NCBI GenBank assembly: GCA_964035545.1
Contig: OZ037769.1
Span: 11,314,633 to 11,378,632 of the forward strand
Direction of reading: 5' to 3'
DNA: 64,000 bases
Source of the DNA: Bugula neritina
Lineage: Eukaryota > Animalia > Bryozoa
The notes beneath the pieces are model-generated. The model did not search any database. It worked only from the letters and a program-made list of their open reading frames with translations, and was not told where the DNA came from. Positions 16,101-54,117 of this stretch are shown piece after piece; position 1 is the first letter of the stretch, and each line of letters starts with the position of its first letter. The position numbers and the translations under genes were made by a program.

Positions 16101-17308
16101 ATATTATATAATTATCATATAATGCAGGTATAAATAATATTTATGTATCATGTTATGTGATAATAGGTAATATTATATAGTAATAATATAGTCATATATC
16201 ATGTTATATAGGCATATATCATATAATATAGTCGTATAGTTTATCATATAGTCATATATCTAGCTAATATTGCATAGTTACTTAAAAAATAGACAATAGC
16301 AGTAATTTTTAGGCTTCTTTCTGCGTCTTTGTATTTTTTTATTACATGAGCTTGTGTAAAATAGCGAATCAGTATAAAACTGGGTATGAACTATAGACGC
16401 TTGCTCTGCAGCAATGTGTTTATATTATTGTTGCAAGGTACCGGTACAATATTATATAGTTGAAGCTTTTTAACATTTCCCAAAACCCTAACTGCTACAT
16501 GTGTTTCTCCCCAACCTCACTATCACATTCCTGGTGAATCTAGGCTACTTATATACTGGAGAAAGCAGTTGGCTAAGACTTTGAAAGAGTTGGAATCAGC
16601 TGAAACAGGCGAACAGGAAGTTGAAGGGGAGGAGTCTGGTGAGAAGAAGGCGGAGTCTGAGCAAGAGGAAGATGAGATAGACAATGAAGTTTCCAGACTT
16701 CGGGCAGAAATAGAGCAAGATGCTAAGAGGTGTGTCTAATAGATTGAAACATTGTTTTAGCTGCAAAATATGTTTGAACATATTAAACAGTGCTTGCTTG
16801 TATCCTATAAAGTGAAATCACATTTTCAAAACTTGACGGAGGCTGGTTTTATTTTTCAACAACTTAATTTGTTTTGTGAGTATATGTAGTAATTGGGCAG
16901 TAGAAGAGGGCCAGATTTCTTACTTTTCAATTTTGAATTGCGAAAAGTTGCATATCATTTCAGTTTTTTATTTTATGTTTTGTGTAGGTTTTATTTTATT
17001 TGTTTGCTTGAAGGAAAAAGAAAAAGGCCGGAAAAGTAAAAGCTAAACTCCGAGAAAAGATGAGACTGAATATCATCAGACCAGGTGATAGGATTGAGCA
17101 GCAAGATGACGAAAGTCTGTTTGACCTGAAGAGGATGAAAACGAAGGTGAGGGAATTACTACTTGTAAAAATGTACTGTTTACAGCAGTAGTAGCTAGTA
17201 GTAGCAGTCACAATAGTATCAGTTATAGTAGTAGCAGCCATTAGTAACAGTTGTGGTCGAGTTTACTACTAAACATACTAGTTCATATTTATATTAGTAG
17301 TGGTGGTC

Positions 17309-17405
<97 letters not shown>

Positions 17406-17426
17406 CAGTAGTAGCATTAGTAGCAT

Positions 17427-17465
<39 letters not shown>

Positions 17466-20400
17466 CAGCAGTAGTAGTAGTAGTAGCAGTAGCAGCAGTA
17501 GTAGTAGCAGCAGCAGCAGCAGTAGCAGTAGTAGTAGTAGAAGTAGTAGTAAAAATGGTAGTGGTGGTAGTAAAAGTAGTGGTAGTGACTCATTAGAACA
17601 CCAGTGTGCTGGGTTATGTTCATGTACTGCTAACAACTACCTCTGATGGTTATACTGACAGTGAAGTTATCTTCACCAACTCTCCTGTAGGATCACCTGG
17701 ACCGCGTGGAGTCGTTCGCTGTGGATGGAGCAGAACCAGAGCTGGAGTGGGAAAGTGACGATAGTGAGTCCGATGGCGGGAGGAAGAGAAACGTTATGTA
17801 TGACAGGACTGAGGGGAATGTAGACGCATGGAGTGATGACGAAGTGGAGGAAGGGGAGAGTGATGTTGATATGAATGATGTTAGGTGAGAACTTCTATTC
17901 TAAATATTCATGGCTTGTGGGCCTCAACTATAGTGTCATAAAACCTTGTAGACAATATTTTTCCGTCTCGATTAAATGCGTTTTTTCCCTTCACTTTAGT
18001 CCAAACTTGAAATTTAACAAAATCCGGAACGAAATAATATCCGCATACACTCACAGCATTTGTTAGAGATAATCTCCACCTGTATAGTATCTATTACACT
18101 GTATACCGTGCAGTGCACCAGAAGGCAGCGACAGCGATCATGAAGAACAGGAAGGTGCTGTGTCTAACCCCCTCCTGGCTGACCTTGACACTAGCGAGGA
18201 GCATCTGTCTAAACAAGCTAAGCTTTGGTTCAAGCGGGTTTGTTTGTTATGATTACTAAACAGGCAATACTAGCTACTAATCTAGTTTTAAGTTAGTTTA
18301 GAAGGTAAGCATATATATACCTACATTATATTATGGTAAAAGTTGTTATATTACCTAAGTTAGTCTCACTGGCTCTATAAAATACACATTTTATTTACTG
18401 TAAATCCGGTCAAGGGATAAAGTTTCACCAAATTATACTACTTGTCTGGTTAGAGGTATTATACTGATTGCCTTCCCATAGTGATAGTTAAAAGACTATT
18501 CTGTCAATTACCAATGTTAATGAGGCATATACTTTGTTGTTACAGGAGGCATTTGAGGGGGTGAATCTTGATGCGGATGAGGACTACGACGTGGATCAAA
18601 TGATAACTCAGTATCAACAGAAAGGGGGCAAAGTGCGAGGTGTGTTCTTCATATCTCTTAACTCTATACCTATCTATTAATATGATATACATGATCTTTC
18701 ACTCTATGTCTATATACATACACTTCATCTTTCATTCTACCTCTCTTTATATAATGATCATATTAAAAAAAAATCACCAGTCACATCTTCAAAAAGCTGA
18801 GTTACCTGTCTAAATATAGATATTAAAATTAAAATCGCTTCCTAGTTGAACAATAAAATGATGTAAACAAAAAGTAAAAACATTGTAGTTTATGAAAGAT
18901 TGGTCCAGTGCAAATCCTACCAATGCAAATTGATCTTAGTCGAGAATATGATAATTTGGGATTTGTCAATAAAAATGAGCAGTTTTTGCTGAAATCAGCG
19001 ATTAGTGTTATTTTATTTCTCTACTTCCTTGCTCTGTATAATTATTTCCTACTATGCCGACAGATTATTTGGCTGCAACATTGCGTGCAGTCCCCTTGTT
19101 TTAAAGTAACACTTCTTATGACCCAGAACTCATTTATTTATTCTAATATTTATGCAATATCAATTATATATAAAAGGGAGCAGCCGTGGTCTAGGGGTTA
19201 GAGTGTTTGCGTAGTAAACAGGAAGTCATAGGTTTGAGCCCAGACAAAACCCATTGGTGATGTTAGGAAGAGCATCCAGTCATAACTGCTGCTGTGTTAC
19301 ATCTGAATAAGTCCTTAGCCCGCTTTAACAAAAACCCTTTCTATCAGGGGTTTCTCACAGGGATAGTGACTATAAACTTGCGTGAATTTTTTTTATTAAT
19401 TATATATAAAATTACCTAAATTGTATACTTTACACATTGTCAAAGGTGCAAAATCAGACGAAGACAACACTGAATTAGACAGTGATGTAGCTGTAAAGAA
19501 GAAGAATTCGAAACCAGCCAAACTGTCTGTGAGTAATCTGGCCTCTGATGGTCAATCCGATGATGAAGATTATGACGAAGAAGGCGAGGATGAAAACGAC
19601 AGCGATGAATCTGATTATGAACAACTGTATGATAGAAAGGTAAGTTTTTTTACTCATGCTCAATCAGTTGGTTTCAAATTTCTCCTAACCTAACTAATAA
19701 TAATTAATCATATATTTTGGTAGTTGCCAATAAATGACTCCAGGCTGTTGATATCTAAAAAAACTTGGTTGATTTCAGAGAGTGCTGAATAATTTGTGAC
19801 ATTGTTGCAGAAATATAAAAATGGTAAAGTGGTAGATGATGCTAATGGTGAGATGGAGGTTGTTAAAGCAGAAGAACCGGTTCCAAAATTGGATGCAGTC
19901 GGTCTTGCATTGGGTGCTAAATTGATATCTTCTAGAAAAGCAAGACGTCAGATGATTGATGACTCATTTAATAGGTATGAGTGACTCAACAGATATATGA
20001 TTCATATCAAATGTGGGTGACTCATAGTGAGTATTGGTGACTCATAGTAAGTATGAGTGACTTTTAGTGAGTATGGGTGACTCATGGTGAGTATGAGTGA
20101 CTCACAATGAGTATGGGCGACTCATAGTGGGTATGGGTAACTCACAATGAGTATGGGTGACTCATAGTGGGTATGGGTGACTCATTAAGAATGTGTAACT
20201 CATAGTGAATATGGGCAACTCATGAGAGTGAAATAATTATGCTGTAGTGTACTTTAGTACTTATCTGGTTGCTATTTTATACAAGTTAATATTTTTAGTA
20301 TATTTAATAATGTTGTGTTGGATTAAAAAGGGAAGTTTATAATAAACGCTTTGTTTTACAATTCTATAATAAAATTATGGAGAAAAAAGGTGAACTTGAG

Positions 20401-21698
20401 ACATTTTGTCTCCTGATGCCTAATGTTTCGCTAGTTTTAACTAGCTAGACATGAAGAAAATTTATACAATCTCACACTTGTTGATCTTCGAGTTAGTATG
20501 CTAGACCTTTGTGATTGTAAACTATATTTATCGTAGGGAATTGTCTCATCTTCCCATCATAGCACTAAAATCATGTCAAAATATGTGTTGGTGAATAAAT
20601 TTTATGAAATCTTAAAATGTATTTTATAGAAATAATTTTTAGCGCAGTTTTTTTGTAAATTGTGCACCATGCTTTGCCAGAAAAGATATTTATGTTGAGT
20701 TAATATGTACAATAAAACCTTATTTTATGATTGTCAATATTGATTATCATTTGAGTCTGGCAAAACTTGGTAGTGTGCTATTATCCTTTTATATACATGC
20801 TGTAAGTTATATTCCAATCAGAAAATCGAAACTTTATTTGAATCAACTTGGGCAGTCTTGTTGACAGGTACGCATTTCATGATGATAGCCTTCCTGATTG
20901 GTTTGAAAGAGATGAGAAAAGACACAACACCCGTCATATTCCAGTCACAAAAGCTGAAATTCAGGAATATAAAGAAAAGTTGAAAGCCATCAATGCCAGG
21001 CCTATTAAAAAGATAGCTGAGGCTAAAGGGAGGAAGAAACGAAAGGTTGATTTAATAATTACCTGATTAAGCTATAGCTTTAACTTTGTTGAAAAAAAAA
21101 TTATGACTATTTTTGTAATTTACTGTAATATGAATATTGAGCAAATAACTTGTTCAACTTCAGATGATGAAAAGGTTAGAAAAAGCTCGAAAAAAAGCAG
21201 AGTCGCTGGAGGGCACTGATGGTGATGGTGTGTCAGAAAAAGAGAAATGGCAGCAAATAAAAAGGTAGGGTCGTAATGTCAACTTGTCAATTCAATTCTG
21301 TAAATTGCATAACATGTCAACATGCTTAATTAATTCATATTTTATGAATATTGCTAATTAATATAAATGAGGTGAAGCTAAGAATCACAAGTAATCCTTA
21401 TTTCTTCATTATAGTTTAGTAATAATCTATGATTTATTTGGTGCTATCTTCTTATCCAAATGTTCTCTTTTTAGTATATATAAAAAGGCAACAAGACAGA
21501 AAAAGGTTGATACAACGTATGTGGTGGCAAAAAAAGGTGCTGGCAAAAAGGTTTCACGGCCATCGGGTGTTAAAGGTCGTTTCAAGGTTGTAGATCCTCG
21601 TCTTAAAAAAGACAATAGACATGCAAAAAGTAATAATAAAAAGGGCAAGGGAAGTAAACCTCAACGAGGAAAACAGACGAAAGGCAAAAAAAGATAAC
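13196..21698 (+). CDS. FTSJ3: pre-rRNA 2'-O-ribose methyltransferase FTSJ3/SPB1, ~17 exons
   Basis: [24 protein letters not shown]|[60 protein letters not shown], and the Spb1 C-terminus ([37 protein letters not shown]). Stop TAA at 21696-21698. Confidence 0.96.
17296..17586. repeat. (AGT/AGC)n microsatellite in an FTSJ3 intron
   Basis: Direct reading. Confidence 0.97.
19176..19397 (+). mobile_element. tRNA-derived SINE in an FTSJ3 intron
   Basis: A box TGGTCTAGGGG, degenerate B box GGTTTGAGCCC, T-rich tail, and 14-bp TSD AATTATATATAAAA (19162-19175, 19398-19411). Confidence 0.85.
19976..20230. repeat. 20-bp minisatellite (GTGAGTATGGGTGACTCATA)n
   Basis: About 11 degenerate units starting at an FTSJ3 splice donor. 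Confidence 0.88.
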
Positions 21699-22114: not shown

Positions 22115-23742
22115 CTATCGAAAGGCTATCATTGGTACATCATATATAGTAGGAGGGAATCCACTCTGGAGCTGCTCTTGAATTATAGTTAAACCAGCAG
22201 CTGCTATAACCGACTTCATTTCATTTAGGGACCTGCGATTCAGGTCAACATATTAATAACTGGTACAATACATACTATAACAGTGATGTCAACATACTAG
22301 TACAGTGGTATCAACATAGTAGCATAATGACTTTGCTAGAGTAGACAGAACTGACAGTGGAAGAATGCATGCTCTACAGAATAACAATCATGGATGGCAA
22401 AAGTTATCAAATACGATCGCTTAGTGCTTGTAGAAATGTAATTATGTAGAATATGTGTGTTGTAGAGATTGTAGAAAGAAGTGATTGTTGAGATGTAGAA
22501 ATATAAATATCATGTACTTTTAGCCTACTGAAGTGAGCGAGTATGGAGAATCTTACTTGATAATTCATCATTTTATTCTAGTTTAATGGTTCATCAAAAT
22601 AATTAGGTTAAAACATTGAAATAATAGACATTTAATCACTACTAGTTGACGGAGCATTTATACAGTAAATTACATCAACTTATTTCAGCCACCTGAATAT
22701 CTTACCTGGTCATACTGCTATCATCATGATCAAAACTTCTGGTATTGGCAACATTATCTTTTATGCATATAATGCCATTTTCATTCAAATGCATTTGACA
22801 TCTTTTTAAAAACTCCGCCAAATGCTTGTCAGTCAAATGACCTACAACCTGTAAAAAAATTATAATGCATCGAATACAAACAATAATTATACTCTAAATC
22901 TTAAACCATTAATAGATATGTCGCAGAGATTTTTCAAATTCAACTTTCGGCATTTAATTTTCAAGTAATTATATTTTAGTTTAATCTTACCCATTGACAC
23001 CAGACTACATCATATCTTCGTGTGGGTGTAAAGTCTTGCATCCCACAACAAATATATTCACCAATTCTTCCTCTTTCTGCCCCTAGCAATATTAATATTT
23101 CACTGAAGTAGAAAGCTTACAATAGTCATAAGGGAAAAGAGAACTGCATCTAAATACTAAATCATTTACCAAAATTTACCAAAAACATCTCGTATATTGC
23201 TAAATTTATGTCAATCTTAAAACAAAATTTTACATGCCATTTCTGATATTTGTTTGATATGCATGAATATTATGTGCAACATACTTTAACAAACAAAATT
23301 TTCACGTACAGTAAAGTTAAAGTTAGAGTTAAACTTAAAGTAGTTAAACTTAATGTCAATGTCATGGCAATCATAATGATAATGATTGAATTTAATGAGC
23401 TTAATTTAATTGTAATTTTTCACCTATATAATTTGGAGCTTCGTCGAGAAACTTCTGATTTACTTCCAACATATCAACAGTATCAAACAGTGGGAGTAGG
23501 AGGTTTTTTGTTACTCTACCAATACCAGCGCCACAATCTAGTGCTCTGCATCTTCCAATCTTTTCACTATTCATTAAAGTTTTCAAGAACTTTGAAGAGC
23601 CGTTTACATCTGTTGTAGTTATATATGAAAACCCTCCAAGCATGCCATCAACGGTTGGTGGAACATTAGACCAGTATGACAGTGCATCTTGGTAAAACTT
23701 GTGTTTTGTGTCGACATGTTCTAATTCTACATGCTTTTCCAT
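22115..23742 (-). CDS. NTMT1: N-terminal Xaa-Pro-Lys N-methyltransferase 1, 4 coding exons
   Basis: FYQDALSYWSNVPPTVDGMLGGF, ALDCGAGIGRVTKNLLLPLF, YDVVWCQWVVGHLTD, IKDN, DSSMTR. Exons ~23424-23742, 22992-23082, 22706-22848, 22115-22232. Confidence 0.95.
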
Positions 23743-24028
23743 CTTGAGGAGAGCGAGTAATTGATAGACTGAGTACCAAAAGTTAAATTTGTATATGTTT
23801 ACGTTGCACCCTATGGTACCGCTATCAAATATATTAAATCTGCAGAGGTGCGTCTATTTTATTGCCTTGACCTTACCTTTTTCACTTCTTCAGATTCGCT
23901 AGAGTCTAGATTCTACGAAGAAGTTCAGAGTTATTCCCTCTATCTCTAAAAACTCCTATCAGTTTTCAATGGACCAACCTTATTAATTATTATAGTAATA
24001 TACAATGTAAATATTTATAAATCGTAAT

Positions 24029-25840
24029 CAGGGATGTAGTGGTACCCATACGGTCCCATACGCCGTATGGCCTAGAAGAAAATAGACTGTTCTAGGCCAT
24101 ACGCCCGTATGGGCATATTTTTGAAAGATGATTAGTGCACAGGATATTTTGGGCATCCTCACTGAGAATATCATAAATTTCGCTAACAATCTAATTTAAG
24201 TTCTTGTTATGTTAATGCTATGTGGGTGGCATGCGTGTTGCCTACTTGTGATTGTTTAGCCTGAGATTACACTATGAATACTATGCAGCTATCAACATTG
24301 CATCTTCTTATCTCTACGTGTTCACTGAAGCGCGAAGTGCTGTGCATTGGTGATTACTAAGGAAAAAAATCTTACATTTTCAGTGTATAAATCACTAACT
24401 TGTAGAAAATCTATGAAGGCTATTGACAAGATTGAACAAAAAATTTACCATGCATAAATTTCTCAGGTTTCCGACAGTGTTTGTTCTATTCCAATACCAT
24501 GCTTTCCTGCTGAGATATTTGGCAGGGATTGAAAAATAAATTTTTCAGGTAAAATTGGCCAAAAATGGGTAGATTTTTGTCAATAACTTTGCAAAAAAAT
24601 ATTGAAAACTCAAAAAACAGGTGCTCTGAGGAACAGGAAGATCTAAAACATGGTTTTTAAATTTTAATTCTAGCACAATTAAGTGAGGTTTTATTTGGCA
24701 GGACTGAATTCTTATAATATACCAATAATGTGGCCTCAGCAAGGCAGTGACAGCTAGAAGGTGGCCCTTATCTATCATGTGTGAACTTGCATTTTGTCAA
24801 TAAGCAATGGAATTTGGAAAAAACCAACATGAAATCCAGAAATAAAATCAAAATGTCTTCAAGAAACAGTACCAGGTGTGTAGGAGAGGCTAATGAAAAT
24901 TTATCACTGAGGTCTACAGGTACTATATCTACATTTTGGTCAAAAACCTAGCATTATTGCATGTTAATTATCAATGCAATAAGGTTTTGCAAACTGTACA
25001 CCACCATAAGTAACCTTTTATGTTTGATTGTACTAACACCTGGCTTTACATTTAATCCTCTTCTAGGTTAACACATATTAAACCTGTCAAATTTGTTCTT
25101 TTGGGGTATATTTCCTTGATGTATCTAGTGGAAGCTCAGGGGTTTTATTTTAAAACCAAGTTAACATACTTTTCTTGGGTGTGCTTTATATTGTGTGTAA
25201 GGAGGTGTGGCGGTATCACCTTATGGATTAGACTAGTACTCTAATAAACTCCAAATAGGTTTTCAACCAATTTCTGCTTGCCAATGAGTTATCAACTCAA
25301 ATTGCTCTTTATAATTAACCAACACACATTTTCTGATTAGCAATCTTCCTCTGTTCTGATCTATTATTCTTTTTCTGTGCACAGCACTGTATTAGTTATT
25401 TAAAGTAATCAGGTTGCATTTGGAGAGCACTTGTTACCTGCCTCTATCCTTCCATCTTTTTGAGATATTCAGCAATTTTTCTGTACAGGTTGGACTTAGT
25501 CTCAGAATAAACCTAACTGCAGTTGAGTAAGACTACATTACATTACATTACAGTCAACAGGTATAGGACAAGACTGAATATTTATATAGTTTGCAGCAAT
25601 GCCCAGTCGTCATGTAGCTGGTATGGTATGAAAATAATAGCGAGGTGCACATTTCAACACAGATTTTTTTCAGAAGAATTATAATTCTCAATGGCTTTAA
25701 ATTGCATAAATTTGCATCAGAAGTGCTCTGAGGGCTTCGGTGGCTGGGGCGCTGCCCCGGGCCCCGCCGGGGGCCTGGGCGGCCCCCTGGACCCCCGGCC
25801 TAAGAGTATGGCCAAGAATATTTTTACCACTACAACCCTG
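24029..25840. mobile_element. Non-autonomous hAT-superfamily DNA transposon (1812 bp)
   Basis: 16-bp TIRs CAGGG(A/T)TGTAGTGGTA with one mismatch. Perfect 8-bp TSD ATCGTAAT (24021-24028, 25841-25848). Subterminal CCATACG/CGTATGG motifs. No transposase ORF. Confidence 0.9.
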
Positions 25841-26082
25841 ATCGTAATACAACGCTTTTCACATAAATATCGGAAGTCACAGATCGAAAAGTTTTGTTTA
25901 CTTAAGATGTACTAGTTGCTAGTGTTATGCAACTCGGATATTTTATAGATATATAATTTATATGCTGCTCCTCAAGTTACCATTTTTCATTATCAGTTGA
26001 AAATTTCTTTTTGAGCTCTATATAGTAAAATTACTATTTTTTATATTGGGACTGTGTTTTAGTTTGCTTGAGCCTTTACTAT

Positions 26083-26434
26083 TGTAGTAATTTGTGCAAT
26101 TACTGAGCGTGAGTTATTTACTTGCGTATAGTTAGCTGGTTATTCTGTTATCAATTACTAGGGTAGCTGTCGAGTAATTATATTTATTATCCACAATAAA
26201 GCATAAACCAAACATCACATCAAATTATCCTATACAAGAGTCAACTACTAACACATGTTACTACTACAAGCCTCCGCTTACAACAACGTGATATAATGTT
26301 AATAACCCGGGAAGTGTCACGTGACTCGGAAGCATATCTTCCGGAGCTGCTAATTGGTTGCTACATAAGAGTCTAAGTATTCCAAGAATAGGGAGAGGGC
26401 GATTCCTGTATTTGTACTTGCACTACTCACTACA
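26083..26434 (-). repeat. 3' LTR of element 1
   Basis: Direct repeat of 30995-31346, adjacent to the PPT. Confidence 0.96.
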
Positions 26435-26724
26435 CCGTCCCCCCCAGCAGAAAGCCCTACTTTCTGATAACACAATAAAAAAACATAATGAAAAACCATA
26501 CAATAATCCAAAAAGGAAATATTCATAAGTAAACCCACAAAGAGTAAGAAAAGAAATAGTTAAACACGACAACGTTTACATTAGAAGACAACAGGGTGAT
26601 CGATCACACACATCTAGTCAGCTATTAAGAGAGAGGGTGCTTACCAGCACGCGGGCCAATGTCGGAGCGCTCGTCACATCCTAAACGAGCTATAGCTCAA
26701 CGAAGGTGCCTACCCCAGGCATTC

Positions 26725-27778
26725 TCATTGGTTGGACTCTGCTTCTTGTAGCGACCGTGCTCTGTGTCGAGCCTGTCGGGCCCGTAGCCGCCTCTTCAGT
26801 CGTCCCACTGAGTCTTTCAACTGGTATAGACCTGTCGTCGTATCCAGCAAGTCAGGGGCAAGTTGTGTGAACTCGGCTTGCAGTCTTAGAAGCCGCTCTT
26901 CTACGTTAGCCAGCTGGCTAGGCCTTGGTGGGGTTATAGGGGTCTCCGTTATACGGGATATGGTTGTTTCTTCTACTTCTGGGGTGTTGCTGGGGTTGAC
27001 GGGGGTAGGAGGTGGGCCCTGAACCATAGGGGACTTATGGCGGGCAGATAGTAACAGTACGTGAAACCCTGACGTTAGTGCGGCCAGGGTAATAGCCTTC
27101 CTGATGACTGGCTTGATGGCATCCAGGTATAGGGGGAAACTGTCTTCATCAACAGTGTGGTTCTCTCCGGCGAAGCAGCTTAGCTTATGTACTGTCACGG
27201 GATACGGGTAGACGTCGTGGAACCCGCAGGGACAGAAGTGGAGTAGGAAATGGGCATCTACATGTAAACGCAAGGAGCGGTGCGACGGGCACTCCTCAAA
27301 GCAGACCTGGCAGGTTCGGTGTGGTCCACTGGGTCCCCAGGCTTCTTTAATTCTCCTCTCTGTCGTGGGTGACACCCAACGGTGCCGTCGGCGGAGTACT
27401 ACTGGTATGCCATTCTCCATTACAGGCTCTTCTTCCATAGACAGAGAGGTTGGCTGGTCCCGTGACCGGGAGGTGGTCACTCGAGTGTGATCTGAAAGAG
27501 TAGCAGTGTTAAAGATTATACACTGAGACACCGTCGGCGTGTACAGCCTGACCGGTACTCTGTTCAGTTACACTCGTGAGATTCAGGCTAATGAATAGTT
27601 GATGGAGAACACACTCGCTATGACAGATTATTTAAAATCAAAGTCGACGTGTATTCCCACCACTGTTTATCATTATCGAATCTCCAGCTTAGCTAGTGTA
27701 GCTAAGCTGACTGATGCAGTCTAGTTATCGTACCAAAAACATAATTAACTCACCCTTCGATCCAGAATAGTAAGACAT
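26725..27778 (-). CDS. ORF3 of element 1: spliced tandem zinc-finger/coiled-coil protein (~263 aa)
   Basis: Exon 1 at 27778-27754 (MSYYSGSK, donor G|GTGAGT), intron 27753-27492 (..TACTCTTTCAG), exon 2 at 27491-26725 in frame. C-x2-C-x12-H-x3-H plus C-x-C-x12-H-x3-C, and a C-terminal heptad/basic helix. Confidence 0.8.
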
Positions 27779-27801
27779 TTTGGAATGAAAGTGGTAACTG
27801 A

Positions 27802-30060
27802 TTACTGTTTACTGGCACGTCTACTCTCGACTGCATCAACATAGGAAAAGACCGGACAGCGTGGTTGTGAAACGTGACTAGGGCTTTTCACTTCCAGCGG
27901 ATGAATCTCGTGTGAGATTCCGCCGAGGCAAAAGTTGAGATTCTCGTGGTGATCACAACTCCCACGGCTCTTTGCCTGTTTTCCCATGCGAGGCCTCTCT
28001 AGACTTTTGTTACTGCCGCTTATACCGCGGTCACGTACACAGTCTCTGAGACACGCTGGAAGTTGCCTAGTGTGTGGTGCTGGTCCTATGTTGGCACCTC
28101 CTTGCGGAGCCCCTCCCACGGGGGGTTTTTGCACTTCCGGACCTGTCTCTGGTTCCGGAAGTGGTGATGATGGCAGGCTTGACGTTGGGGGCGGTGGGCG
28201 CACTTTCAAGGACGGAAGTGGCCTTTCTCGCCTCGCCAAGTCTTCCTGACGTGTCATGGAGGTGTTTCCGGCCAGGTTGACAGTCTCCGCCTGCCGAGAC
28301 CTTCTCGCACAATGCGTCTGCCGCCCCGCTTCACCAGGGAGACGGCTATGCTTGTTGGTCTGGCAGACTTTGCACCGTCTCACTCTGCGTCGGATATCCC
28401 GTTCCATGTTAGGCCAGTACCACCGGAGTTGTAGCTTGGTGACCACCCCTTGGACTCCTCCGTGAGTCTCCTCGTGGGTGTCTTGTATCAACTTCCGGCG
28501 GATGGCAACTGGGCAGACAACCCTCTTCCTGGCTGGCTGTCCGCTGTTGGCGGCCAAGGTCATGGTTAGCAGACCATCTGGCCCGACCCGCAGAGAGCTC
28601 CAACGTTGACAGTACAGCCGTAACTCGGCGCATCCCTGTCGCCGTTGTGTACTACTGGGTCGTCGCCCCTCCTGTTTCGCTCGGTACACGTCGGCTACCA
28701 CCCCAGGAAGGCATTCCTGGAGCTTCGGCAGCTCCCTAACGTTACCAGCCCATACAGGTTTGGCGCGGAGGCTCTGGGCAGCCTCCGGGGGCGTGTCAGC
28801 CCTCTGTTGAAGTGGCTGAGCAGGGGCGGTCCTCGCCGCCCGTGGTACCTCACGGCAGCCTGCTCTATTTAGGCGGGCTCCGTGGTTTGTGTGGCTGAAC
28901 GCCTCACTGTACCCATGTGGCAACCTAGCCCTAGCCTGGCGCTTCCCGTTGCCTGTGCAGCCACGCGTCCCTGGAGGAGGGGAGGCGTGGGTTGGGACGG
29001 TCCTCCGCCCTCGAGGCGGGCTCTGCTGAGGACCTTCCGTCGTAGCTCCCGACGACGGCCCAATGGCTTCCTCCTGGACAGGATGGAAGCGACCCAGCAT
29101 GGATCTGGGTGGTAGGTCTACTGTCTCTGAGAAGGGGTTGACACACTGCACTGAGATCTCTCCTTGCCCCGTGAGCCGGCTAAAACTACGGGCAAGTTGG
29201 ACTCTCGAGTGCGTACTTTCGACAACTCCCAACTTAGAGGTTTGGCCACCGTCTACCTTGCAGCGGACGGTAGCCCGGGAGTGGCCTGGTATAGTACAGC
29301 TCCGTACTACCTGTACTGCTCCCGCTAGAGGACGACCAAACTTATCGACACAAGCGAGCTCCTTGTCGCCCATGATTATCGCAGATTTACTGAAATCGAT
29401 GCGACAACCGTGTCGTTGTAAGAATGGCATCCCGAGGATAGCATCCTCGTTGAGCTGCCCGACGATGAACGTCTCTTGGATGGCCTGGCTACGGACGTAA
29501 CCAGTTAGCTCAATAATGCCGTAGAAGGGAATGCACGACCCGTCTGCCAAGGTGCCGTGATCCCCCTCGTACGGTGCCAACCTGTCCTTGACCTTAGCGC
29601 TGAGGGTGTCAAAGAACTGACGGCTAAGGAGGTTGGTGGTGCAGCCGGAGTCCAGGAGGAAGTTGGCAGGCTTGCCGGCTAACTTCCCTGGCAGGAAGTA
29701 GCTACTTCCGTGCGGCTGCAGTTGAGTGTGCCGTGGTTGCACCTCCCTCGCTGTGGGTCGAGGGGTCCACGGTTGGCGGCGACTATTGACCAGCTGCCGA
29801 GGTTGGGGCGGTACGCCTTGCGGCGCTTGTACCGTTTCCCTCGCAGGCTCTGTGGTCAACCGTCTGCCGGCTCCGTGTTGGTGCCGGAGTGGCGTAGAGG
29901 ACCCAGGCGGCGAGTGGCTTGAGCCTACTTGCCGCGGGGGTCGCCACTTCACAGCATCTCCGCGCGGCGCCCAGCGGGGCGACAGACGCGCGGGCCTCCC
30001 TGGGTGATTTACAGACGGCCCGCAGGAGGTGGGAACATCTGCGGGCCGGGGTAGTTTAAC
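27802..30060 (-). CDS. Internally deleted Pol of element 1 (aspartic protease + integrase HHCC zinc-binding domain; no RT, RNase H or integrase core), in the -1 frame to gag
   Basis: FLLDSGCTTN protease motif, ILGMPFL, and HEETHGG..RWYWPNM..CKVC are present. No YxDD, no TDAS, no D,D35E. Confidence 0.88.
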   Translation of the reverse strand, partial: VKLPRPADVPTSCGPSVNHPGRPARLSPRWAPRGDAVKWRPPRQVGSSHSPPGSSTPLRHQHGAGRRLTTEPARETVQAPQGVPPQPRQLVNSRRQPWTPRPTAREVQPRHTQLQPHGSSYFLPGKLAGKPANFLLDSGCTTNLLSRQFFDTLSAKVKDRLAPYEGDHGTLADGSCIPFYGIIELTGYVRSQAIQETFIVGQLNEDAILGMPFLQRHGCRIDFSKSAIIMGDKELACVDKFGRPLAGAVQVVRSCTIPGHSRATVRCKVDGGQTSKLGVVESTHSRVQLARSFSRLTGQGEISVQCVNPFSETVDLPPRSMLGRFHPVQEEAIGPSSGATTEGPQQSPPRGRRTVPTHASPPPGTRGCTGNGKRQARARLPHGYSEAFSHTNHGARLNRAGCREVPRAARTAPAQPLQQRADTPPEAAQSLRAKPVWAGNVRELPKLQECLPGVVADVYRAKQEGRRPSSTQRRQGCAELRLYCQRWSSLRVGPDGLLTMTLAANSGQPARKRVVCPVAIRRKLIQDTHEETHGGVQGVVTKLQLRWYWPNMERDIRRRVRRCKVCQTNKHSRLPGEAGRQTHCARRSRQAETVNLAGNTSMTRQEDLARRERPLPSLKVRPPPPTSSLPSSPLPEPETGPEVQKPPVGGAPQGGANIGPAPHTRQLPACLRDCVRDRGISGSNKSLERPRMGKQAKSRGSCDHHENLNFCLGGISHEIHPLEVKSPSHVSQPRCPVFSYVDAVESRRASKQ

Positions 30061-30959
30061 CCTGGTGGGAGTTGAGGGCAGTTTCTCTGGAAATGTCCTG
30101 GCCTTCCGCATTCCCAGCAGAAGTGGTGCCCCATGTCTGGTGATTGTACCTGCGGCCCGCAAGGCTCACGGGCAGTATCTACCTGGCTTGGGGAGGCTAA
30201 TGTGGTGACCAGTTTATCTAGCATGTCAGTCATCTGTGAGATTTTTGACACTAGTGACATCTGGTTCACATTAGCCACCGCGGAGGGTTCCGCATTTACT
30301 TCGGTGTGAGCAGTAGAGTGCTCCGTGGTCACCTGGCGGGAGGCCACGCGGTTGCGGTGCATATGAGTCGCCAAGAGATAGGCTTCTCCCACCGCAAGTG
30401 CATCTTCGACTGTGGTGACTCCCCTCGCTTGGAGTTGATGGTGGAGCCCCAAGTCGTTGATGGACTGCACGAAGGCATCATAGGTATACCTCTCACGGTG
30501 TACCGGAGGCAGATCGCGGAATGCGATCTGCGCTAATGGGTACACCGTGGCAGCGTGCTCTTCTAGTGACGTGTGAGGATCACGCCGCATCCTCTGTAGA
30601 CGGGCCCGCGCATCTATGGGAGAGATGCCAAAACGGGCCCGCAGGGAAGCAAAGATTCCGTCTATGTCAGGTCCAGCTCCGTACGGCTTAGCTTTGCCCG
30701 TCAGCGCCATCCTGAGCTTTAGCAACGCCACCCTTGGCGGCCATTCTGCAATCTCCATCACATCTTGGAATTCTTGAATAAACTGCTCCACTGCTTCTTC
30801 GCCAGTGAAGGTGGGCGCCTTCAGCCGGTATCTATCTTCACCATGCCCTCTAAGAATTCTCACTTCTTCATCTAACACCACTGGTTCCACAGGTATATCA
30901 ACATTATCTCTCTCACCTTCATTCAGTGGAATGGGTAGCTCCGTGCCGTCTTCTGCCAT
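30009..30959 (-). CDS. gag: Gag of element 1
   Basis: First ATG after the PBS. Capsid-like YRLKAPTFTGEEAVEQFIQEF and CCHC knuckle CWECGRPGHFQRNC. Homologous to 32485-33354. Confidence 0.92.
   Translation of the reverse strand: MAEDGTELPIPLNEGERDNVDIPVEPVVLDEEVRILRGHGEDRYRLKAPTFTGEEAVEQFIQEFQDVMEIAEWPPRVALLKLRMALTGKAKPYGAGPDIDGIFASLRARFGISPIDARARLQRMRRDPHTSLEEHAATVYPLAQIAFRDLPPVHRERYTYDAFVQSINDLGLHHQLQARGVTTVEDALAVGEAYLLATHMHRNRVASRQVTTEHSTAHTEVNAEPSAVANVNQMSLVSKISQMTDMLDKLVTTLASPSQVDTAREPCGPQVQSPDMGHHFCWECGRPGHFQRNCPQLPPGLNYPGPQMFPPPAGRL
30016..30060 (-). promoter_or_regulatory. -1 ribosomal frameshift signal (gag-pro), element 1
   Basis: G_TTA_AAC, 5-nt spacer, 10-bp stem CGGCCCGCAG/CTGCGGGCCG. 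The downstream ORF is in the -1 frame. Confidence 0.8.
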
Positions 30960-30975
30960 GACTGCTATACGCAAG

Positions 30976-30993
30976 ATCCCACCGCTGCCACCA
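30976..30993 (-). promoter_or_regulatory. Primer-binding site, tRNA-Leu
   Basis: TGGTGGCAGCGGTGGGAT is complementary to the 3' end of metazoan tRNA-Leu(AAG/UAG) (..AUCCCACCGCUGCCA-CCA) and identical to the PBS of element 2. Confidence 0.85.
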
Positions 30994-30994
30994 C

Positions 30995-31346
30995 TGTAGT
31001 AATTTGTGCAATTACTGAGCGTGAGTTATTTACTTGCGTATAGTTAGCTGGTTATTCTGTTATCAATTACTAGGGTAGCTGTCGAGTAATTATATTTATT
31101 ATCCACAATAAAGCATAAACCAAACATCACATCAAATTATCCTATACAAGAGTCAACTACTAACACATGTTACTACTACAAGCCTCCGCTTACAACAACG
31201 TGATATAATGTTAATAACCCGGGAAGTGTCACGTGACTCGGAAGCATATCTTCCGGAGCTGCTAATTGGTTGCTACATAAGAGTCTAAGTATTCCAAGAA
31301 TAGGGAGAGGGCGATTCCTGTATTTGTACTTGCACTACTCACTACA
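30995..31346 (-). repeat. 5' LTR of element 1
   Basis: Direct repeat of 26083-26434, followed after 1 nt by the PBS. Confidence 0.96.
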
Positions 31347-32018: not shown

Positions 32019-32429
32019 TGTGATAGATTTTAGTAGTGCAATTCCTATTAGATTAATCGAAAAGGTTTACTCTATACTGTTTTATGTATCTTGTGAGTTC
32101 GACACTGTCGGAGTGTAACTATGGACAGTAGTGGCACCATTAGTAGCCACCAATCAGGACAGTGACACTAATTGATAGCAGGTGGAGCTAGCTACTCGTA
32201 GTTGCAGTGCGCTGAGTAGCTAGCCGGCAGAGCAGCTTGGGACTTCATTTAGAACAGTTGTGTATTAAAGCTCACTAATTATGTAACCGTTTTCTATTCA
32301 TGCTAGCAGTAAATAACCTTCTTGTATTTGTGTAAATAATAAAAGTATCTTATCATAAACAACCTGTCGCAGTGGCTTTGATTAAGTAGACCCACAAATA
32401 ATAATAGTGAACTGGCAAAATTCACTACA
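32019..32429 (+). repeat. 5' LTR of element 2
   Basis: Direct repeat of 39271-39681; contains CCAAT and AATAAA. Confidence 0.96.
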
Positions 32430-32448: not shown

Positions 32449-32484
32449 CTCACTTAATACAAATGCCCCTAGTCAGGGAGTAAG

Positions 32485-33354
32485 ATGGCCGACGAAGTCG
32501 TCGACGCGCCCCGACAGGAGCCAGCAGCAAAGGAGGAGGATCACATAGGCGGCCCAGCGCTGCCTATGGACAGGTACCACTTGCGGGCTCCCACCTTCTC
32601 TGGAGAGGAAGATGTGGAGCAATTCATCACTGAGTTCAGTGATGTGGCGGACATCTGCGGATGGCCGAATAGGGTTACTCTGATCCAGCTGCGGTTGTGT
32701 CTGACAGGGCCGGCTAAACCCTATGGGATAAGCCAGAATGTCGGTGACATATTTGAAGCAATACGAGCTAGGTTTGGATTAACCGCTCGAGATGCTCGCG
32801 TGCAACTGCAGAGTCTTAGGAGAAATCCTAAGACCAATCTGCGAGAGCACGCTACCGTAGTCGAACGACTGGCACAAGTTGCTTACAGCGACTTGCCTGC
32901 CGATGGTCGACAGAGCCTAGCACTGGATGCATTCCTCCAGTCTATTAACAACCTCGGTCTTAAACAGCATCTGCTGGTGGCCGAAGTTGAGACTATGGAG
33001 AGAGCTCTAAGGCTTGGGAATGCCTATTTCCAAGCCGACAGTGCAAGTCGACCTGGCGCGACAGTACAGCAAGTCGGGGCAGACGACGTGTCGACGTCGT
33101 CAACGAAGACAGCTGTACAAGTCGCAGCGGCAGCAGCAGACGAATCTAGCTTAACCACGAGCTTGATTCGAGAACTGCTCGCCGAGTTCAGGCAACTGCG
33201 CCAGCAGGCGACAGCCAAGAGACCCAAGAGGTCGTCGGTAGCTGTCGCCGACAGGCGCGGCCCCGTATGCTGGGGCTGTGGTAGCGGTGGGCACTTCTTA
33301 CGAAGTTGCCCCCGCGGCAGTGGGAGGCGGTTAAACAGCGACGGCCCACGGTAA
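32485..33354 (+). CDS. gag: Gag of element 2
   Basis: YHLRAPTFSGEEDVEQFITEF and CCHC knuckle CWGCGSGGHFLRSC. Confidence 0.93.
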   Translation: MADEVVDAPRQEPAAKEEDHIGGPALPMDRYHLRAPTFSGEEDVEQFITEFSDVADICGWPNRVTLIQLRLCLTGPAKPYGISQNVGDIFEAIRARFGLTARDARVQLQSLRRNPKTNLREHATVVERLAQVAYSDLPADGRQSLALDAFLQSINNLGLKQHLLVAEVETMERALRLGNAYFQADSASRPGATVQQVGADDVSTSSTKTAVQVAAAAADESSLTTSLIRELLAEFRQLRQQATAKRPKRSSVAVADRRGPVCWGCGSGGHFLRSCPRGSGRRLNSDGPR

Positions 33355-33373
33355 CTTCCGCCTACCGTGGGCC
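33330..33373 (+). promoter_or_regulatory. -1 ribosomal frameshift signal (gag-pol), element 2
   Basis: G_TTA_AAC, 6-nt spacer, 11-bp stem GGCCCACGGTA/TACCGTGGGCC. pol is in the -1 frame. Confidence 0.8.
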
Positions 33374-36300
33374 CGAGTTTAACCCCCCAAGGCAAAGGCT
33401 ACGGCCCCCACCCCATCGGGTGAGGAGGCCGCCTTCGCCAGAGTGGCAAGTCTCAAGGAGAGTGAGTCGGCCGCAAGGCCCACCAATACCTCCGGCTTGG
33501 GCACTCAAAAACCGCTTTGAAGGTTTGCTTGATGAGGGAGTGAACGACGAATGGGAGCACAACAGAGATTTTCCTCGGTTGCCCACACGAGCATCAGTCC
33601 GAGAATTCACTCGGCCGCCCGTGTGTGAGCGAGACCGAGACGTACCCTGCCCGCCCATGCAACGTCGACGACCCCCTCGCAACCGAAAAGCACAGGTGCA
33701 TCCCCAATTCCATGCACATGAGGTGTCGCCTCAAGAGACAAATCGCTCAGTGAGCGCCCAGCCATATGGAAGCAGCTATTTCCTCCCCGGCAAAATTGCT
33801 GGTAAAGCTGCCACATTCCTGTTGGATACTGGGTGTACCACAAATCTACTGAGTCGGCGTCTCTTCGACACTCTCAGTGCCAAGGACAGGGCTAGCCTAG
33901 AACCATATGAAGGGGAACACGGCACGTTGGCGGACGGGTCGTGTATTCCTTTCTATGGGGTAATCCAGTTGACTGGTAGAGTCCGTGATCAGATGATCAG
34001 TGAGACCTTCATCGTCAGTCAACTCAAGGAGGATGCCATCTTGGGCATGCCATTTCTGAAGCGACACAGGTGCTACATCGACTTTAGCAAGTCGGCAGTA
34101 GTGATGGCGGGGCGTGAGCTGGCCTGTGTCGACCGATTTGGCCGACCTTTGGTGGGGGGAGTGCAGGTGGTACAGCGCTGTACTGTACCTGGGCGCTCCC
34201 GGGCTACAGTTCGCTGCAGAGTGAACTGTAGGGAGATCTCCGAACTCGGAGTGGTGGAAGGTGCACTGGGGGGCGTCCAGCTCGCTAACAGTTTGAATAG
34301 ACTGGATGAGCGGAGGGAGTTCCTGGTCCAGTGCGTAAACCCTTTCACGGAGCCGGTAGAATTACCGGCTGGGTCTCTAGTAGGGAAGTTCCACTCCGTG
34401 CAAGAGGAGGATGTAGGGCCCGCGCTGGAAACAGCGGACGGTGCCCGGGGACCCGCCGGTTAGGTCCTGAGAAGGAGAGAGAAGTGAGCCGTCAGGTGCA
34501 AGACCTTCTGAACCGGGACCTGATTGAGCCAGGCCATGGGGCCTGGAGTTCTCCAGTCGTCCTGGTTCGGAAAAAGGATGGTAGCTGGAGGTTTTGCGTT
34601 GACTATCGCAGGCTGAACAGCGTGACCATCCAGGACGCTTACCCTCTCCCGAGGATCGATGAGTCGCTCGATGCCTTAGCTGGTAGCAAGTTCTTCAGCA
34701 CGTTGGACTTGTTAAGCGGGTATTGGCAGGTGCCCCTGAGTCCTGAAGCACAGGACAAGGCCGCGTTTATAACGCGGGATGGGCTCTGGAAATGGAAGAT
34801 GTTGCCATTCGGACTTACGTCCGCACCAGCCACCTTCCAGCGACTCATGGAGCAGGTCCTGAGTGGACTGCACTGGAAGACCTTGCTCATATATCTCGAT
34901 GATGTCATCGTCATCTCCCCCGACTTCGACACACATGTCAGTCGACTCAGGGAGGTGTTCGACAGACTCCGAGCTGCTAACCTGAAGCTGAAGCCCTCGA
35001 AGTGTGCATTACTGCAACGCGAGGTCAAGTACCTGGGCCATGTAGTTGGTCGAGACGGGGTCGCCACCGACCCCGAGAAGGTACGGGCCGTGAGGGACTG
35101 GGCCGTTCCTGTCGACCTCTCTGAATTGCGGGCGTTCCTGGGGCTGGTTGGGTACTATCGTCAGTACATACCAGACTTTGCAGGAATTGCACAGCCGTTA
35201 AATCGGCTGACCGCGAAGGGGGTGCGATGGCAGTGGACGCAGGCTGAGCAGAAGGCATTTGACCACCTGAAGGATCGCCTGGTGGAGGCACCCATCTTGG
35301 CGTATCCTGACCCTGCGAAGGAGTACATTTTGGATACTGATGCCAGTAACCATAATGTGGGGGCGGTGCTATCACAGGTCCAAGATGGTCGCGAGGTGGT
35401 GGTGGCTTACTATAGCAAGGCCCTGTCGGCGCCTGAGAAGAACTACTGTACAACCAGGAGGGAACTCTTGGCAGTAGTCAAGGCGGTCAAACACTTTAGA
35501 CCATATCTATATGGGCGCACATTCCGGCTTCGGACGGATCATGCGTCCCTGATATGGCTGTGTCGACGGGCAGAACCATCCAGCCAAGTGGCGCGCTGGC
35601 TAGAGATCCTGGCAGAGTTTTCTTATCGGATCGAGCATCGACCCGGTAAGAAACACGGTAATGCAGATGGACTCAGCCGCCGCCAGGCAGATGGGTGTAA
35701 GCAATGCCAGAATATCGAGCGCAGGGACGGTGGACCCCCTCGCTCGGACGTCGAAGCGCAGTTAGGGAAAGCGGGTGTGTACAGCTGGGAAGAAGGGCAA
35801 CTCCTGTCCGAATCACCCAACAAGGCTGTTAACAACCTTCACGCAAACCCCACGTTGCTTCGGAACGTCAGGGAGCTATGTCGGCTCCAGTCCACGCTAC
35901 CAGGAGTGGTAGCTGACCTAGTCCGGGCCAAGAAGGAGGGACGGCGGCCGAGTGAGGCCGAACAGCGAGTGAAGAGTACTGAGTTTAAGTACTTCTGTGA
36001 CCGCTGGGACTCCCTAAGGTTCAACAGCGATGGGCTGCTAACGATCACGTTGGCAGTCGGCACCAATCGCAATGAACGAGAGAGGGTAGTCTGCCCGTCA
36101 GCTCTGCGGCGGGAGTTGATCTGGGACACCCATAAGCAAGCTCACGCAGGAGCTAGCCGGGTGATCAGGTGTCTTCAACTCCAGTGGTTTTGGCCCGGTA
36201 TGACCTGGGATGTCCGACTCCGGGTGCGGAAGTGCGAGGTGTGCCAAGCTAGCAAGCATGGCCGCCCCACTGAGACCGCAGGGAGGCGTCGCCTCCATGC

Positions 36301-37588
36301 CGGTCGTCCGTGGCAGGTGGTTGCTGTCGATCTGGTAGGCCCCATGCCCACTACAGCGAGAGGTAATAACTGGATACTGGTATTAACTGACCATTTCACG
36401 CGGTGGGCTGATGCACTGGCTATTCCAGATGCGTCGGCCCCCTCGGTGGCCAGAGCTCTGGATCAACAGGTGTTCTGCTATTTCGGCTTGCCGGAGCAGA
36501 TACACTCTGACCAGGGCGCCCAGTTTCAGTCGCAACTTATGAGCGATCTCTGTAGAATGTGGGGGGTAAACCAGAGTCGGACGACCCCGTATCACCCGCA
36601 AGGGAACGGGGTCGTGGAGCGGAACAACCGAATGCTAGGGGACTCTCTGAGAAGCCTGCTTATCGGTAGGAGCCAGGAAGAGTGGGACTTGGTGTTGCCG
36701 CAGATCATGCGAGCGTACCGTAGTACCCCTCACTCCAGTACACTGGAGACACCTAATTTTCTCATGCTGGGGAGAGAAACAAGGGTTCCTGAGCACGTAA
36801 CCTATCATGTTCCGAATCCAGAAAGCAATGTCCACGACTACGTGGACAAGCTCGTAAAACGCATGGGGACGGCTCACGAGGTGCTACGTGAGCAGCAGTG
36901 GCAGGTCAGGAGTGGTGATTCTGACGACCCACCTTTATACAAGGTGGGGGACTGGGTCTGGATGACCAGTCATCGCCGCAGGCGCGGACAGGCAGCCAAG
37001 TTGCAGCCGAAGTTCGTAGGTCCCTACTGCGTAATTGAGGTAATGCCAAATCATACATACAAAGTGGAACGGTCTGGACAAGTGTCGGTCCAGAACGAGG
37101 CACGGCTAAAACCTCACTGGGCAAGTCCTGATGCGGCAGGTCAAGCACCTCCTCTCTTAGAGCCAGCTAGGCGCCCTCCTATGAGGGGGCGACCCATGGC
37201 ATATCGAGAGATTGAGGAGATACTGCCAGATCAGGACGGGGCGGCTGATGCGCCAGCCGACCAGCCCCAACCTCCTCCACCCCAGGAAGAGGAGGTCGAC
37301 ACACCTGAAGACCTGTCGGAGCCGGCCCCACCACCTGTGGAGCCGGTCGACAGGCCCATCGTTCCGGATGAGATGGAAATTCCTCAGGATACTGAGGGAG
37401 AGGCAGCTGGGGGAGGGCCACCCGTACTGGTGGACCCCCCCGTACTGGCGACACCACCCGTGGTGGAAGAGTCGCCAGTCGCAGCAAACTCCCCGGTACC
37501 GTTGGACCGTAGCCAACGTACCAGGGCGCCACCATCTTATTTAAAAGACTTCTTGTGTGACTTGGTCGACATGCACAGTATTCTGTAG
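33330..37588 (+). pseudogene. pol: Pol of element 2 (PR, RT, RNase H, integrase), broken by a frameshifting deletion near 34452
   Basis: The PR frame (LLDTGCT) stops at 34463. A different frame carries RT (WSSPVVLV, FCVDYR, LPFGL, YLDD), RH (DTDAS, RELLA, TDH, NADGLSR), IN (HHCC, VDLVGP, SDQG, VERNN) and a GPY/F motif (KFVGPY). Confidence 0.88.
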
Positions 37589-37828
37589 CATGGCGACATT
37601 CACAAAGGAGTCTGGGGGAGCGAGGTAATTGATAGCAGGCGACCCAGTGGCGGATTGAATAGGTCAGCCGGGGGTCAGCAGAGCGTAGCCAAATCACAGC
37701 GTATAGGGTGTTACATAAGCACTCTAGCTGTGAGCGCTCTTTTCAATTACAGCTAGCAAACAGGCAGCACGTCTTTTGCAATAAATAATTTGGCTATCTA
37801 CGAGCCCTAAGAAAGCAGCAGCATCATT

Positions 37829-39025
37829 ATGTCTAATGCAGCAACTGTTTTGGGGGGTAAGTCTACTAGGAATTCTATAATAATTAATTAGAATTTATTC
37901 TGGTAGCGACAGCAGTCTCACTTTGTCATAATGATAAAGTTGAAACTCCTGACAGCGAATGATATTGATAATTAGAGTGGGACAGTCGACTCAGCTGATT
38001 ACACGATCAGTGAGTGACAGTGAGACTCGATTATTTAATATTGTTTGGAACGGGAGTCCCACGCATAGAGTGTAATTAAATTTAAATACTCTATTGCAGG
38101 TGAGACTGAGCCTGTATCCGACGAGATACAGGCATTACTTGACACGCCTACGACTAACTGGGACAGCATGTCAGAAGCAGGGGTAGACATGCTGTCCGAC
38201 ATACATTTAGCAACATTTACGGACTCCCCGACACACACTGCGATGCAAATTGATACCAACGACTTGACTGATGACTTGACTGTAGCCAAGGACACTACTC
38301 TAGCACTACTAAGAGCCTTACTGGGACGGACTAACTGGACGACTCGACGGACTCGAACATTGATAGAAGCAATAGTAGGGACGGACGACAATAGACAATG
38401 CACTGAATGTAGAAGAATACTATCGACTACTAGGAGACTGAGAATACACGTTCCACAACACTTTACTGTGACTTTCTGTCCCTGCGGAGTGCACCACTTC
38501 TGCAGGGACACGATACTGAGACACCAACGAACTAGAGACTGTTACGTAGGGCACTTGTATGAAGTCGACGCAGACTCTTACACGGAGTTCCGGGACCTAA
38601 TACTACCCCACGTGACTGACCCGGACCGACGACAGACTCTCCTGGACCACTTCCCCGCTACCCGACCTACAGTAGAGAGTGACTCTGATGCAGACCCCCA
38701 ACCCTCCGAAACAACGACTACCTACCCTCCAGACGTAACCACCCAACCTCTACGCGTCGTAGTAACCCGTGCTGGACGCGCTGTGACGAAGGACTCACAA
38801 CCCCCAACGACGACAATCTCCTATGTACCCCGACACACCCATAAGAAGAAGAGGGGTGCTAGCAACACACCCCGAGATGACAGCGACCCTGACCAATCCC
38901 TACTAGCCGACATTAGGAAAGTGCAACGGCGTATGGCTCGCCTCAGTAAAGAACAGAAGCGAGCAACCACCGAGCTGGCTAAGTTGCAGACCCGACTAAA
39001 GAAACGGCTGGCGAAGAAGTGCTAG
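37829..39025 (+). CDS. ORF3 of element 2: spliced tandem zinc-finger/coiled-coil protein (~317 aa)
   Basis: Exon 1 at 37829-37856 (MSNAATVLG, donor G|GTAAGT), intron 37857-38099 (..TACTCTATTGCAG), exon 2 at 38100-39025 in frame. C-x2-C-x12-H-x3-H plus C-x-C-x12-H-x5-C, KKKR, and a C-terminal coiled coil. Confidence 0.82.

Positions 39026-42571: not shown

Positions 42572-54117
<11,546 letters not shown>

Follow-up and report, generated by a model that had tools for sequence, protein, structure and literature searches.

ATG mini-exons and probably folded, leakily retained introns in the putative zinc-finger ORF3 of two Ty3/gypsy elements of Bugula neritina

Results

Two head-to-head Ty3/gypsy elements

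The window, by which we mean the whole 64,000-nucleotide stretch of Bugula neritina DNA analysed here, is AT-rich eukaryotic DNA with host genes split by introns and several repeats (Table 1); tRNA genes were looked for in it and none were found. Two GC-rich LTR elements lie head to head with ~670 bp between them, element 1 on the minus and element 2 on the plus strand. The LTR pair is identical within each element and has TG...CA ends, 4-bp target-site duplications and purine tracts are present, and the primer-binding sites share a core; that of element 1 is presumably of the tRNA-Leu type. We conclude from the identical LTR pairs and the 4-bp duplications that both elements are recent insertions. 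Direct LTRs, target-site duplication, primer-binding site and polypurine tract, together with the domain order of element 2, place them in the Ty3/gypsy group: the Pfam domains of element 2 run in the Ty3/gypsy order of gag, protease, RT, RNase H and integrase, and the best PDB relative of its pol is Ty3-G Gag-Pol (E 1e-125). The gag, protease and RT-integrase of element 2 occupy three frames, corresponding either to two frameshifts or to a lesion in this copy.

Element 1 is a non-autonomous deleted derivative: gag, protease and an open ORF3 are kept, whereas RT, RNase H and the integrase core are gone. Two deletions removed most of its pol, yet it is deeply covered in sequencing run X2 and its LTRs are identical; the family it represents is non-autonomous but successful, with gag, protease and ORF3 retained. 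To the left of element 1, at 25500-26000, the depth in run X2 is very high, which points to an adjoining repeat.

Table 1. Features of the window, with positions counted from its first nucleotide
Feature	Position	Strand	Remarks
Host exon, Armadillo-repeat protein	4692-6059	+	
Host exons, FtsJ/Spb1 rRNA methyltransferase	14319-21697	+	
TAG repeat	17220-17620		
20-nt tandem array	19958-20205		
Host exon, N-terminal proline methyltransferase	23401-23853	-	
Element 1 3' LTR	26083-26434	-	polypurine tract ahead of it
Element 1 ORF3 exon 2	26725-27491	-	stop 26727-26725
Element 1 GT-AG intron	27492-27753	-	262 nt, phase 1, non-coding; GT at 27753, AG end at 27492
Element 1 ATG mini-exon	27754-27778	-	25 coding nt = 8 codons + 1 nt; ATG at 27778
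Element 1 protease and integrase zinc-binding remnant	27802-30165	-	
Element 1 gag	30009-30959	-	one CCHC knuckle
Element 1 alternative first coding exon	30917-30959	-	14 Gag codons + 1 nt
Element 1 primer-binding site	30976-30993	-	core same as element 2
Element 1 5' LTR	30995-31346	-	TG...CA, same as 3' LTR, 4-bp target-site duplication
Element 2 5' LTR	32019-32429	+	same as 3' LTR, 4-bp target-site duplication
Element 2 gag	32485-33354	+	
Element 2 protease frame	33285-34463	+	
Element 2 RT-RNase H-integrase frame	34310-37588	+	Pfam; Ty3-G Gag-Pol closest solved relative
Element 2 possible further upstream intron	37625-37752	+	candidate; donor rank 5, acceptor rank 1
Element 2 ATG mini-exon	37829-37856	+	28 nt = 9 codons + 1 nt; ATG at 37829
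Element 2 GT-AG intron	37857-38099	+	243 nt, phase 1, non-coding; GT at 37857, AG end at 38099
Element 2 ORF3 exon 2	38100-39025	+	
Element 2 3' LTR	39271-39681	+	
16-nt tandem array	47460-48830		
Long AT repeat	49260-49730		

A mini-exon and a U2-type intron at the start of ORF3

An initial annotation of this DNA had read the start of ORF3 in both elements as an ATG mini-exon followed by a phase-1 GT-AG intron and joined in frame to a second exon. Its coordinates, splice sites, phase and joins all hold in both elements, giving joined frames of 263 codons in element 1 and 317 in element 2. The introns have a GC content of 36-41% and 5-10 stops per frame in every frame, and with a consensus GT donor, a pyrimidine tract, a YAG acceptor and a non-coding interior they conform to the U2 type. 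Scored with a weight matrix of textbook frequencies, the mini-exon donors rank second among 319 GT sites in element 1 and second among 471 in element 2, and the ORF3 acceptors fifth among 397 and sixth among 617 AG sites, respectively. The two interiors, described earlier as not obviously alignable, do align weakly, with a local score of 36 that 1 of 300 shuffles equalled.

Intron-less forms and leaky retention

Run X2 looks like genomic DNA, the kind of run being unrecorded; unique flanks are covered to a depth of ~80-100 and the intron interiors are deeply covered. A single contig of this run (depth 843) joins 27491 to 27754 and skips exactly the 262 nt of 27492-27753, with CT..AC ends; the joint has 29 letters on its short side, carries the flag 'between: not known', and belongs to the 15 of 93 X2 joints that were listed. 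Since an intron-bearing relative would be expected to align on into the conserved GT and AG, the exact stop at both splice sites argues for true intron loss. A junction of the element-2 intron is absent among 9 joints in the same run, and the one RNA run, X1, barely covers the elements, its 9 contigs including none at a junction, a cover too thin to bear on splicing.

For element 2, joined forms are found among proteins. Its mini-exon peptide stands joined to exon 2 at the N-terminus of 3/300 database proteins (P0012, P0205 and P0209), two further matches at the same threshold among the 300 being internal chance matches, and P0323, from the P0205 cluster, is a fourth protein with this joint. 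The first three share 69-73% identity, two of them ending early and one diverging at the end, and they do not form one clade (AU p 0.006, on 12 rows and 61 columns with one long branch). These proteins are either decayed intron-less DNA copies or transcripts, and the splice is used in either case. No protein joined to the element-1 mini-exon is present among the 300, and a search of shorter proteins gave no candidate. A degenerate motif matching both window ORF3s hit 0 viral contigs and 17 metagenome contigs, none of them homologous by tblastn, and protein-based scans of genome and viral contigs confirmed no DNA of an ORF3 relative.

Judging from these sequences, we have very little doubt that both introns are real spliceosomal introns and are spliced. 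The initial annotation had supposed that the intron stays in the packaged RNA and is removed only from a separate ORF3 mRNA, and had suggested looking for intron-less copies. The first part stands, in that most copies keep the intron and ORF3 needs a spliced mRNA; the search did turn up apparent copies of this kind, and the exact element-1 joint in X2 and the decayed-looking element-2-type records speak against strict retention. Retention is leaky, not absolute.

A constant acceptor meets several first exons

Across the family it is the acceptor, as read from protein alignments, that appears to be the conserved part, and not the first exon. A residue pair compatible with the acceptor, in gene calls that read through the intron end, is kept in 40/43 element-1-like proteins; the three exceptions are a joined form and two records that are apparently shifted, one of the fits is probably spurious, and many rows are close kin. 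Absence of such conservation had been named at the outset as what would speak against the intron, and among element-2-like proteins the picture is divided: 7/14 have the pair and 7/14 miss it, namely one joined form and six distant rows.

A GT at 30916, in phase 1 and exactly after Gag codon 14, is the top-ranked donor of element 1. A relative of this element, P0044 (65% identity, on a 5.3-kb contig), which is the one record of a Gag-joined form, has the first 14 Gag-type residues joined to exon 2 at the acceptor codon. Both donor and relative had escaped the earlier reading. No joint from the Gag donor is present among the 15 of 93 X2 joints listed. A splice reaching ORF3 from a donor near the gag start is indicated for the element-1 family only; element 2 has no good phase-1 donor there, so the shared-acceptor argument is limited to the element-1 family.

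Longer first exons, of 64-68 aa, are seen in two proteins of distant clusters, P0324 (a gene model of the bryozoan Bugula neritina itself, 40% to the element-2 ORF3) and P0328, joined at the place where other members of their clusters read through an acceptor-compatible pair. Mini-exon, Gag start and this longer exon thus make three kinds of first exon that meet exon 2 at an acceptor-compatible position, with codon-exact joins in seven proteins. The first exons of P0324 and P0328 are 77% alike and their second exons only 37-53%, a pattern which suggests that ORF3 was exchanged among elements or that the leader is shared. In another distant ORF3 cluster (P0298, P0330-P0333), ~30 residues resembling the C-terminal region of integrase are joined to the zinc-finger part; this start may be yet another first exon, from inside pol, or the product of a deletion. 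The place in element 2 that matches the integrase-type joint has a donor-like site, at 36944.

Promoter motifs and upstream splice sites

Initiator-like motifs are present 5' of the element 1 ATG, at 27796-27801 and 27783-27788, and had been offered as a sign of an internal promoter. Such motifs occur in the window at chance level (180 seen vs 167 expected) and the plus strand has none from the pol stop of element 2 to its mini-exon ATG, and we rejected them as promoter evidence on these grounds. The 200 nt upstream of the two ATGs show no likeness to each other, 98/300 shuffles scoring as high.

The multiply spliced mRNA proposed alongside was to use a donor at 32480 and an acceptor at 37752 of element 2. 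The donor is weak (score 5.0, outside the top 12), and at the acceptor the G reads A in 13 run contigs, which hold 2816 of 4968 in summed contig depth, a quantity not taken here as copy number. Acceptor-like sites lie ahead of both mini-exons, at 27831 (rank 12/397) and 37752 (rank 1/617), and the latter could close a further upstream intron (Table 1).

ORF3 is predicted to be a soluble zinc-finger protein

The nature of the ORF3 protein had been passed over in the initial annotation. The exon-2 proteins of the two elements are homologous (35% over 81 aa, E 6e-13), have 33 and 134 close homologues, and belong to a family of 173 clusters at 50% identity. Neither window ORF3 matches a Pfam family, and zf-C2H2_4 matches 9/64 family members. 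The Cys/His ligands, arranged as Cys-x2-Cys...His-x3-His in a strand-helix finger, are nearly invariant in alignments of 64 and 98 rows, as in a C2H2 zinc finger; the second finger is atypical. In the model of the element 2 protein, a core of two zinc-finger-like units (pLDDT 94) is followed by a long C-terminal helix, and exon 2 as a whole runs from an acidic N-terminus through the two-finger core and a KKKR cluster to this helix. By homology to that model, exon 2 of element 1 has two C2H2-like fingers, a basic cluster and a C-terminal coiled coil. The part ahead of the core is net acidic in 34/37 scorable rows, the core is net basic in 60/64, and a heptad pattern is found in 17/44 tails vs 1.7 after shuffling.

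Structural comparison ranks tandem C2H2 DNA binders highest, at a weak level (Z 4.0, rmsd 2.9, 57 aligned). Foldseek returned nothing at E <= 0.001 against PDB and BFVD, generic coiled coils took up the full-length VIA search, and the Atlas gave unnamed or C2H2-type clusters only. The ORF3s show no membrane segment (highest 19-residue hydropathy 1.43 and 0.74). An envelope protein was rejected on this hydropathy, the model being a soluble zinc-finger core with a terminal helix; the predicted acidic N-terminus, two C2H2-like fingers and coiled coil likewise say that ORF3 is not an envelope.

We predict from this architecture that the ORF3 product is a nuclear, dimeric, nucleic-acid-binding regulator. 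The acidic N-terminus, the fingers and the charge layout suggest a transcription activator, with an RNA export factor as the main alternative. For a DNA transactivator working like foamy-virus Tas we would give just short of even odds; an export factor of the Rev/CERV kind is possible if doubtful, and some other role, e.g. anti-silencing, is slightly more doubtful still.

Predicted folding of the introns

Both introns are predicted to fold strongly, a property overlooked in the earlier reading: z is -4.8 in element 1 and -6.4 in element 2, and 0/200 shuffles of each reached the native value. They are the lowest folding window of 42 in element 1 and of 62 in element 2, in a noisy scan with 14 shuffles each. 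The fold models of both pair the pyrimidine tract and 3' splice site and leave the branch region in a loop, and in 13/16 hand-picked proteins the peptides read through the intron end fit a kept hairpin near the branch region. The opposite strand folds nearly as well (z -4.4 and -4.3 vs -4.3 and -6.4), and from this near-symmetry the inverted repeats may have a role in DNA. Compared with LTR, leader and exon 2, the tiles from the 5' donor to the mini-exon fold better (p 0.0009 and 0.005 by Mann-Whitney test, for segments picked after the sliding scan). Rfam gave one sub-threshold match, outside the introns. The gag-pol interior (30916-27754 on the minus strand, 32480-37856 on the plus strand) folds better than shuffles throughout, and the LTRs and exon 2 mostly do not; this is possibly a genome-scale structure of the packaged RNA.

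Discussion

An element that replicates by way of RNA should lose an intron permanently as soon as that intron has been spliced. Some Ogre copies lack theirs, and Penelope-like elements bearing introns have reportedly been found. For the elements described here we propose, with a probability of roughly 65% and on the strength of the sequence comparisons, that one ORF3 acceptor of a Ty3/gypsy element is joined to two first exons and that a folded intron is mostly retained. The phase-1 acceptor would be joined to the local ATG mini-exon or to the start of gag, and the hairpins predicted over the splice sites would keep most full-length RNA unspliced. Retention would then be the default, set by structure; some of the spliced RNA would nonetheless be copied into DNA, and the intron would pass to the majority of new copies but not to all. 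For the element-1 family this would make the short intron what separates an alternative first exon from an acceptor at which the long gag-pol intron ends as well. An intron-less copy would lose the shared acceptor together with the folded element and would hence be disfavoured, which could account for persistence of the intron despite a steady leak. The transcript of the mini-exon would probably start at an internal promoter near the pol end.

A rather different possibility is that all ORF3 mRNA is made by multiple splicing from the 5' LTR, without an internal promoter, along a route that starts at the donor in the leader or gag, passes an acceptor just ahead of the mini-exon and ends at exon 2, with ORF3 exporting unspliced RNA as CERV or Rev does and the folded intron acting as its response element. 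The acceptor-like sites ahead of both mini-exons fit this scheme, as does the good folding of the tiles between the 5' donor and the mini-exon, and CERV offers a precedent in being spliced, Gag-sharing, located at the env position, equipped with a Cys-rich region and a zipper and needed for export, as far as the accessible text of PMC10309623 goes. We nevertheless think it unlikely, given that more than half of the summed depth has A instead of G at 37752 (though an AG four bases further on might serve in its place), that the 32480 donor is weak, that in element 1 the gag ATG would stand ahead of the mini-exon as a short upstream ORF, and that an acidic N-terminus with tandem C2H2 fingers better suits a transcription activator.

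The intron might also be neutral baggage, spliced inefficiently, with hairpins left by an inserted inverted-repeat element and intron-less copies merely rare so far. Nearly strand-symmetric folding, weak likeness of the intron interiors between the elements and the very occurrence of intron-less forms would all be expected in that case; however, the acceptor keeps its phase across subfamilies down to ~40% identity, intron-bearing forms dominate the records even though intron-less ones come from more than one lineage, and the non-autonomous element 1, with most of its pol gone, has kept both the intron and an open ORF3, so that we hold this to be improbable. Least credible of all is the absence of any splicing, with ORF3 starting at one of the in-frame Met codons that lie 17 and 22 codons into exon 2 (27438-27440 region on the minus strand, ~38168 on the plus strand) and the joined records being chance genomic deletions. 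These Met codons are common among homologues, which favours such a start, but the loss in run X2 is exact to the base at GT-AG, and seven proteins with three first-exon kinds have codon-exact joins, which makes the idea barely tenable. A Met inside exon 2 could separately start a third, shorter form of ORF3.

Spliced 3' accessory genes are already known in LTR elements, namely gypsy env, Tor, CERV and foamy Tas. In the accessible part of PMC10309623, CERV of the C. elegans element Cer1 is a protein of 517 aa, encoded in five exons and with a G-protein-like domain, that shares Gag peptides and is required for export of unspliced RNA, and homologues are unreported outside nematodes. ORF3 resembles it in being a spliced ORF at the env position that shares the Gag N-terminus (P0044, donor 30916; element-1 family), and differs in having two C2H2-like fingers, an intron that is non-coding and predicted to fold, and its own ATG in a mini-exon. 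Foamy virus Tas and Bet are, according to the accessible portions of PMC9143442 and PMC13220597, 3' accessory genes with an internal promoter and spliced mRNAs that have their own start, and Tas is a DNA-binding activator of both the LTR and that promoter; foamy viruses are enveloped retroviruses with splice sites in coding sequence, unlike the elements here. Tas gave no sequence or fold match to ORF3 among predicted viral structures at E <= 0.001, and it is charge and domain layout alone that would point, by analogy, to DNA binding or transactivation.

The ORF3s of gypsy (env) and of Oikopleura Tor (env) are membrane glycoproteins, the Tor3a env being reached via a donor near the gag start and those of Tor3b/4b via an unspliced transcript from an internal promoter near the pol end, in the sections available of PMC4402516 and 10.1101/2023.05.27.542554; here, by contrast, there is no membrane segment and both first-exon kinds appear to converge on one acceptor. 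BARE1 has a 104-nt intron that is kept in genomic copies and spliced for Gag only, with no DNA copy found for its spliced RNA, and Ogre is spliced between ORFs, as stated in the available sections of PMC3735527. The present elements share with the plant elements Ogre and BARE1 a short spliceosomal intron in an LTR element, kept in genomic copies, but here it interrupts an accessory zinc-finger gene. Non-envelope extra ORFs of invertebrate LTR elements include the bdelloid rotifer ORF3s (PMC5408684) and the sORF2 of the MDG1 group (10.1101/2025.03.14.642691), which those sources, in the text accessible, give as esterases, exonucleases and membrane or fusogen-like proteins; the ORF3 here is a predicted zinc-finger one, unlike any noted in that text. 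In the literature covered, which included few subscription journals or repeat-database entries, nothing turned up on this zinc-finger ORF3 family, nor on an ATG mini-exon followed by a folded non-coding intron.

In several subfamilies, forms with the intron stand beside forms that lack exactly this intron, so that the rate of loss and the selection on it become measurable from copies. If ORF3 is a transactivator or an export factor, virus-like accessory regulation would be common in non-enveloped animal retrotransposons, beyond nematode CERV. A bolder proposal, which we advance only tentatively and would not favour at present, is that an undescribed, widespread group of animal Ty3/gypsy elements independently evolved a circuit like that of complex retroviruses, with a two-finger C2H2 transactivator, interchangeable first exons and an intron switch under selection. 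Were this so, the folded intron would be a switch between packaged RNA and regulator mRNA, kept against a measurable intron-less leak.

Two further sets of splice-like sites were noted. The best donor-like site of element 2 (rank 1/471) directly follows the ORF3 acceptor, at 38098-38105 on the plus strand, in a recursive-splice-like arrangement. Element 1 has a strong donor (rank 3) and acceptors of ranks 3 and 4 in its 3' untranslated part, at 26622-26644 on the minus strand.
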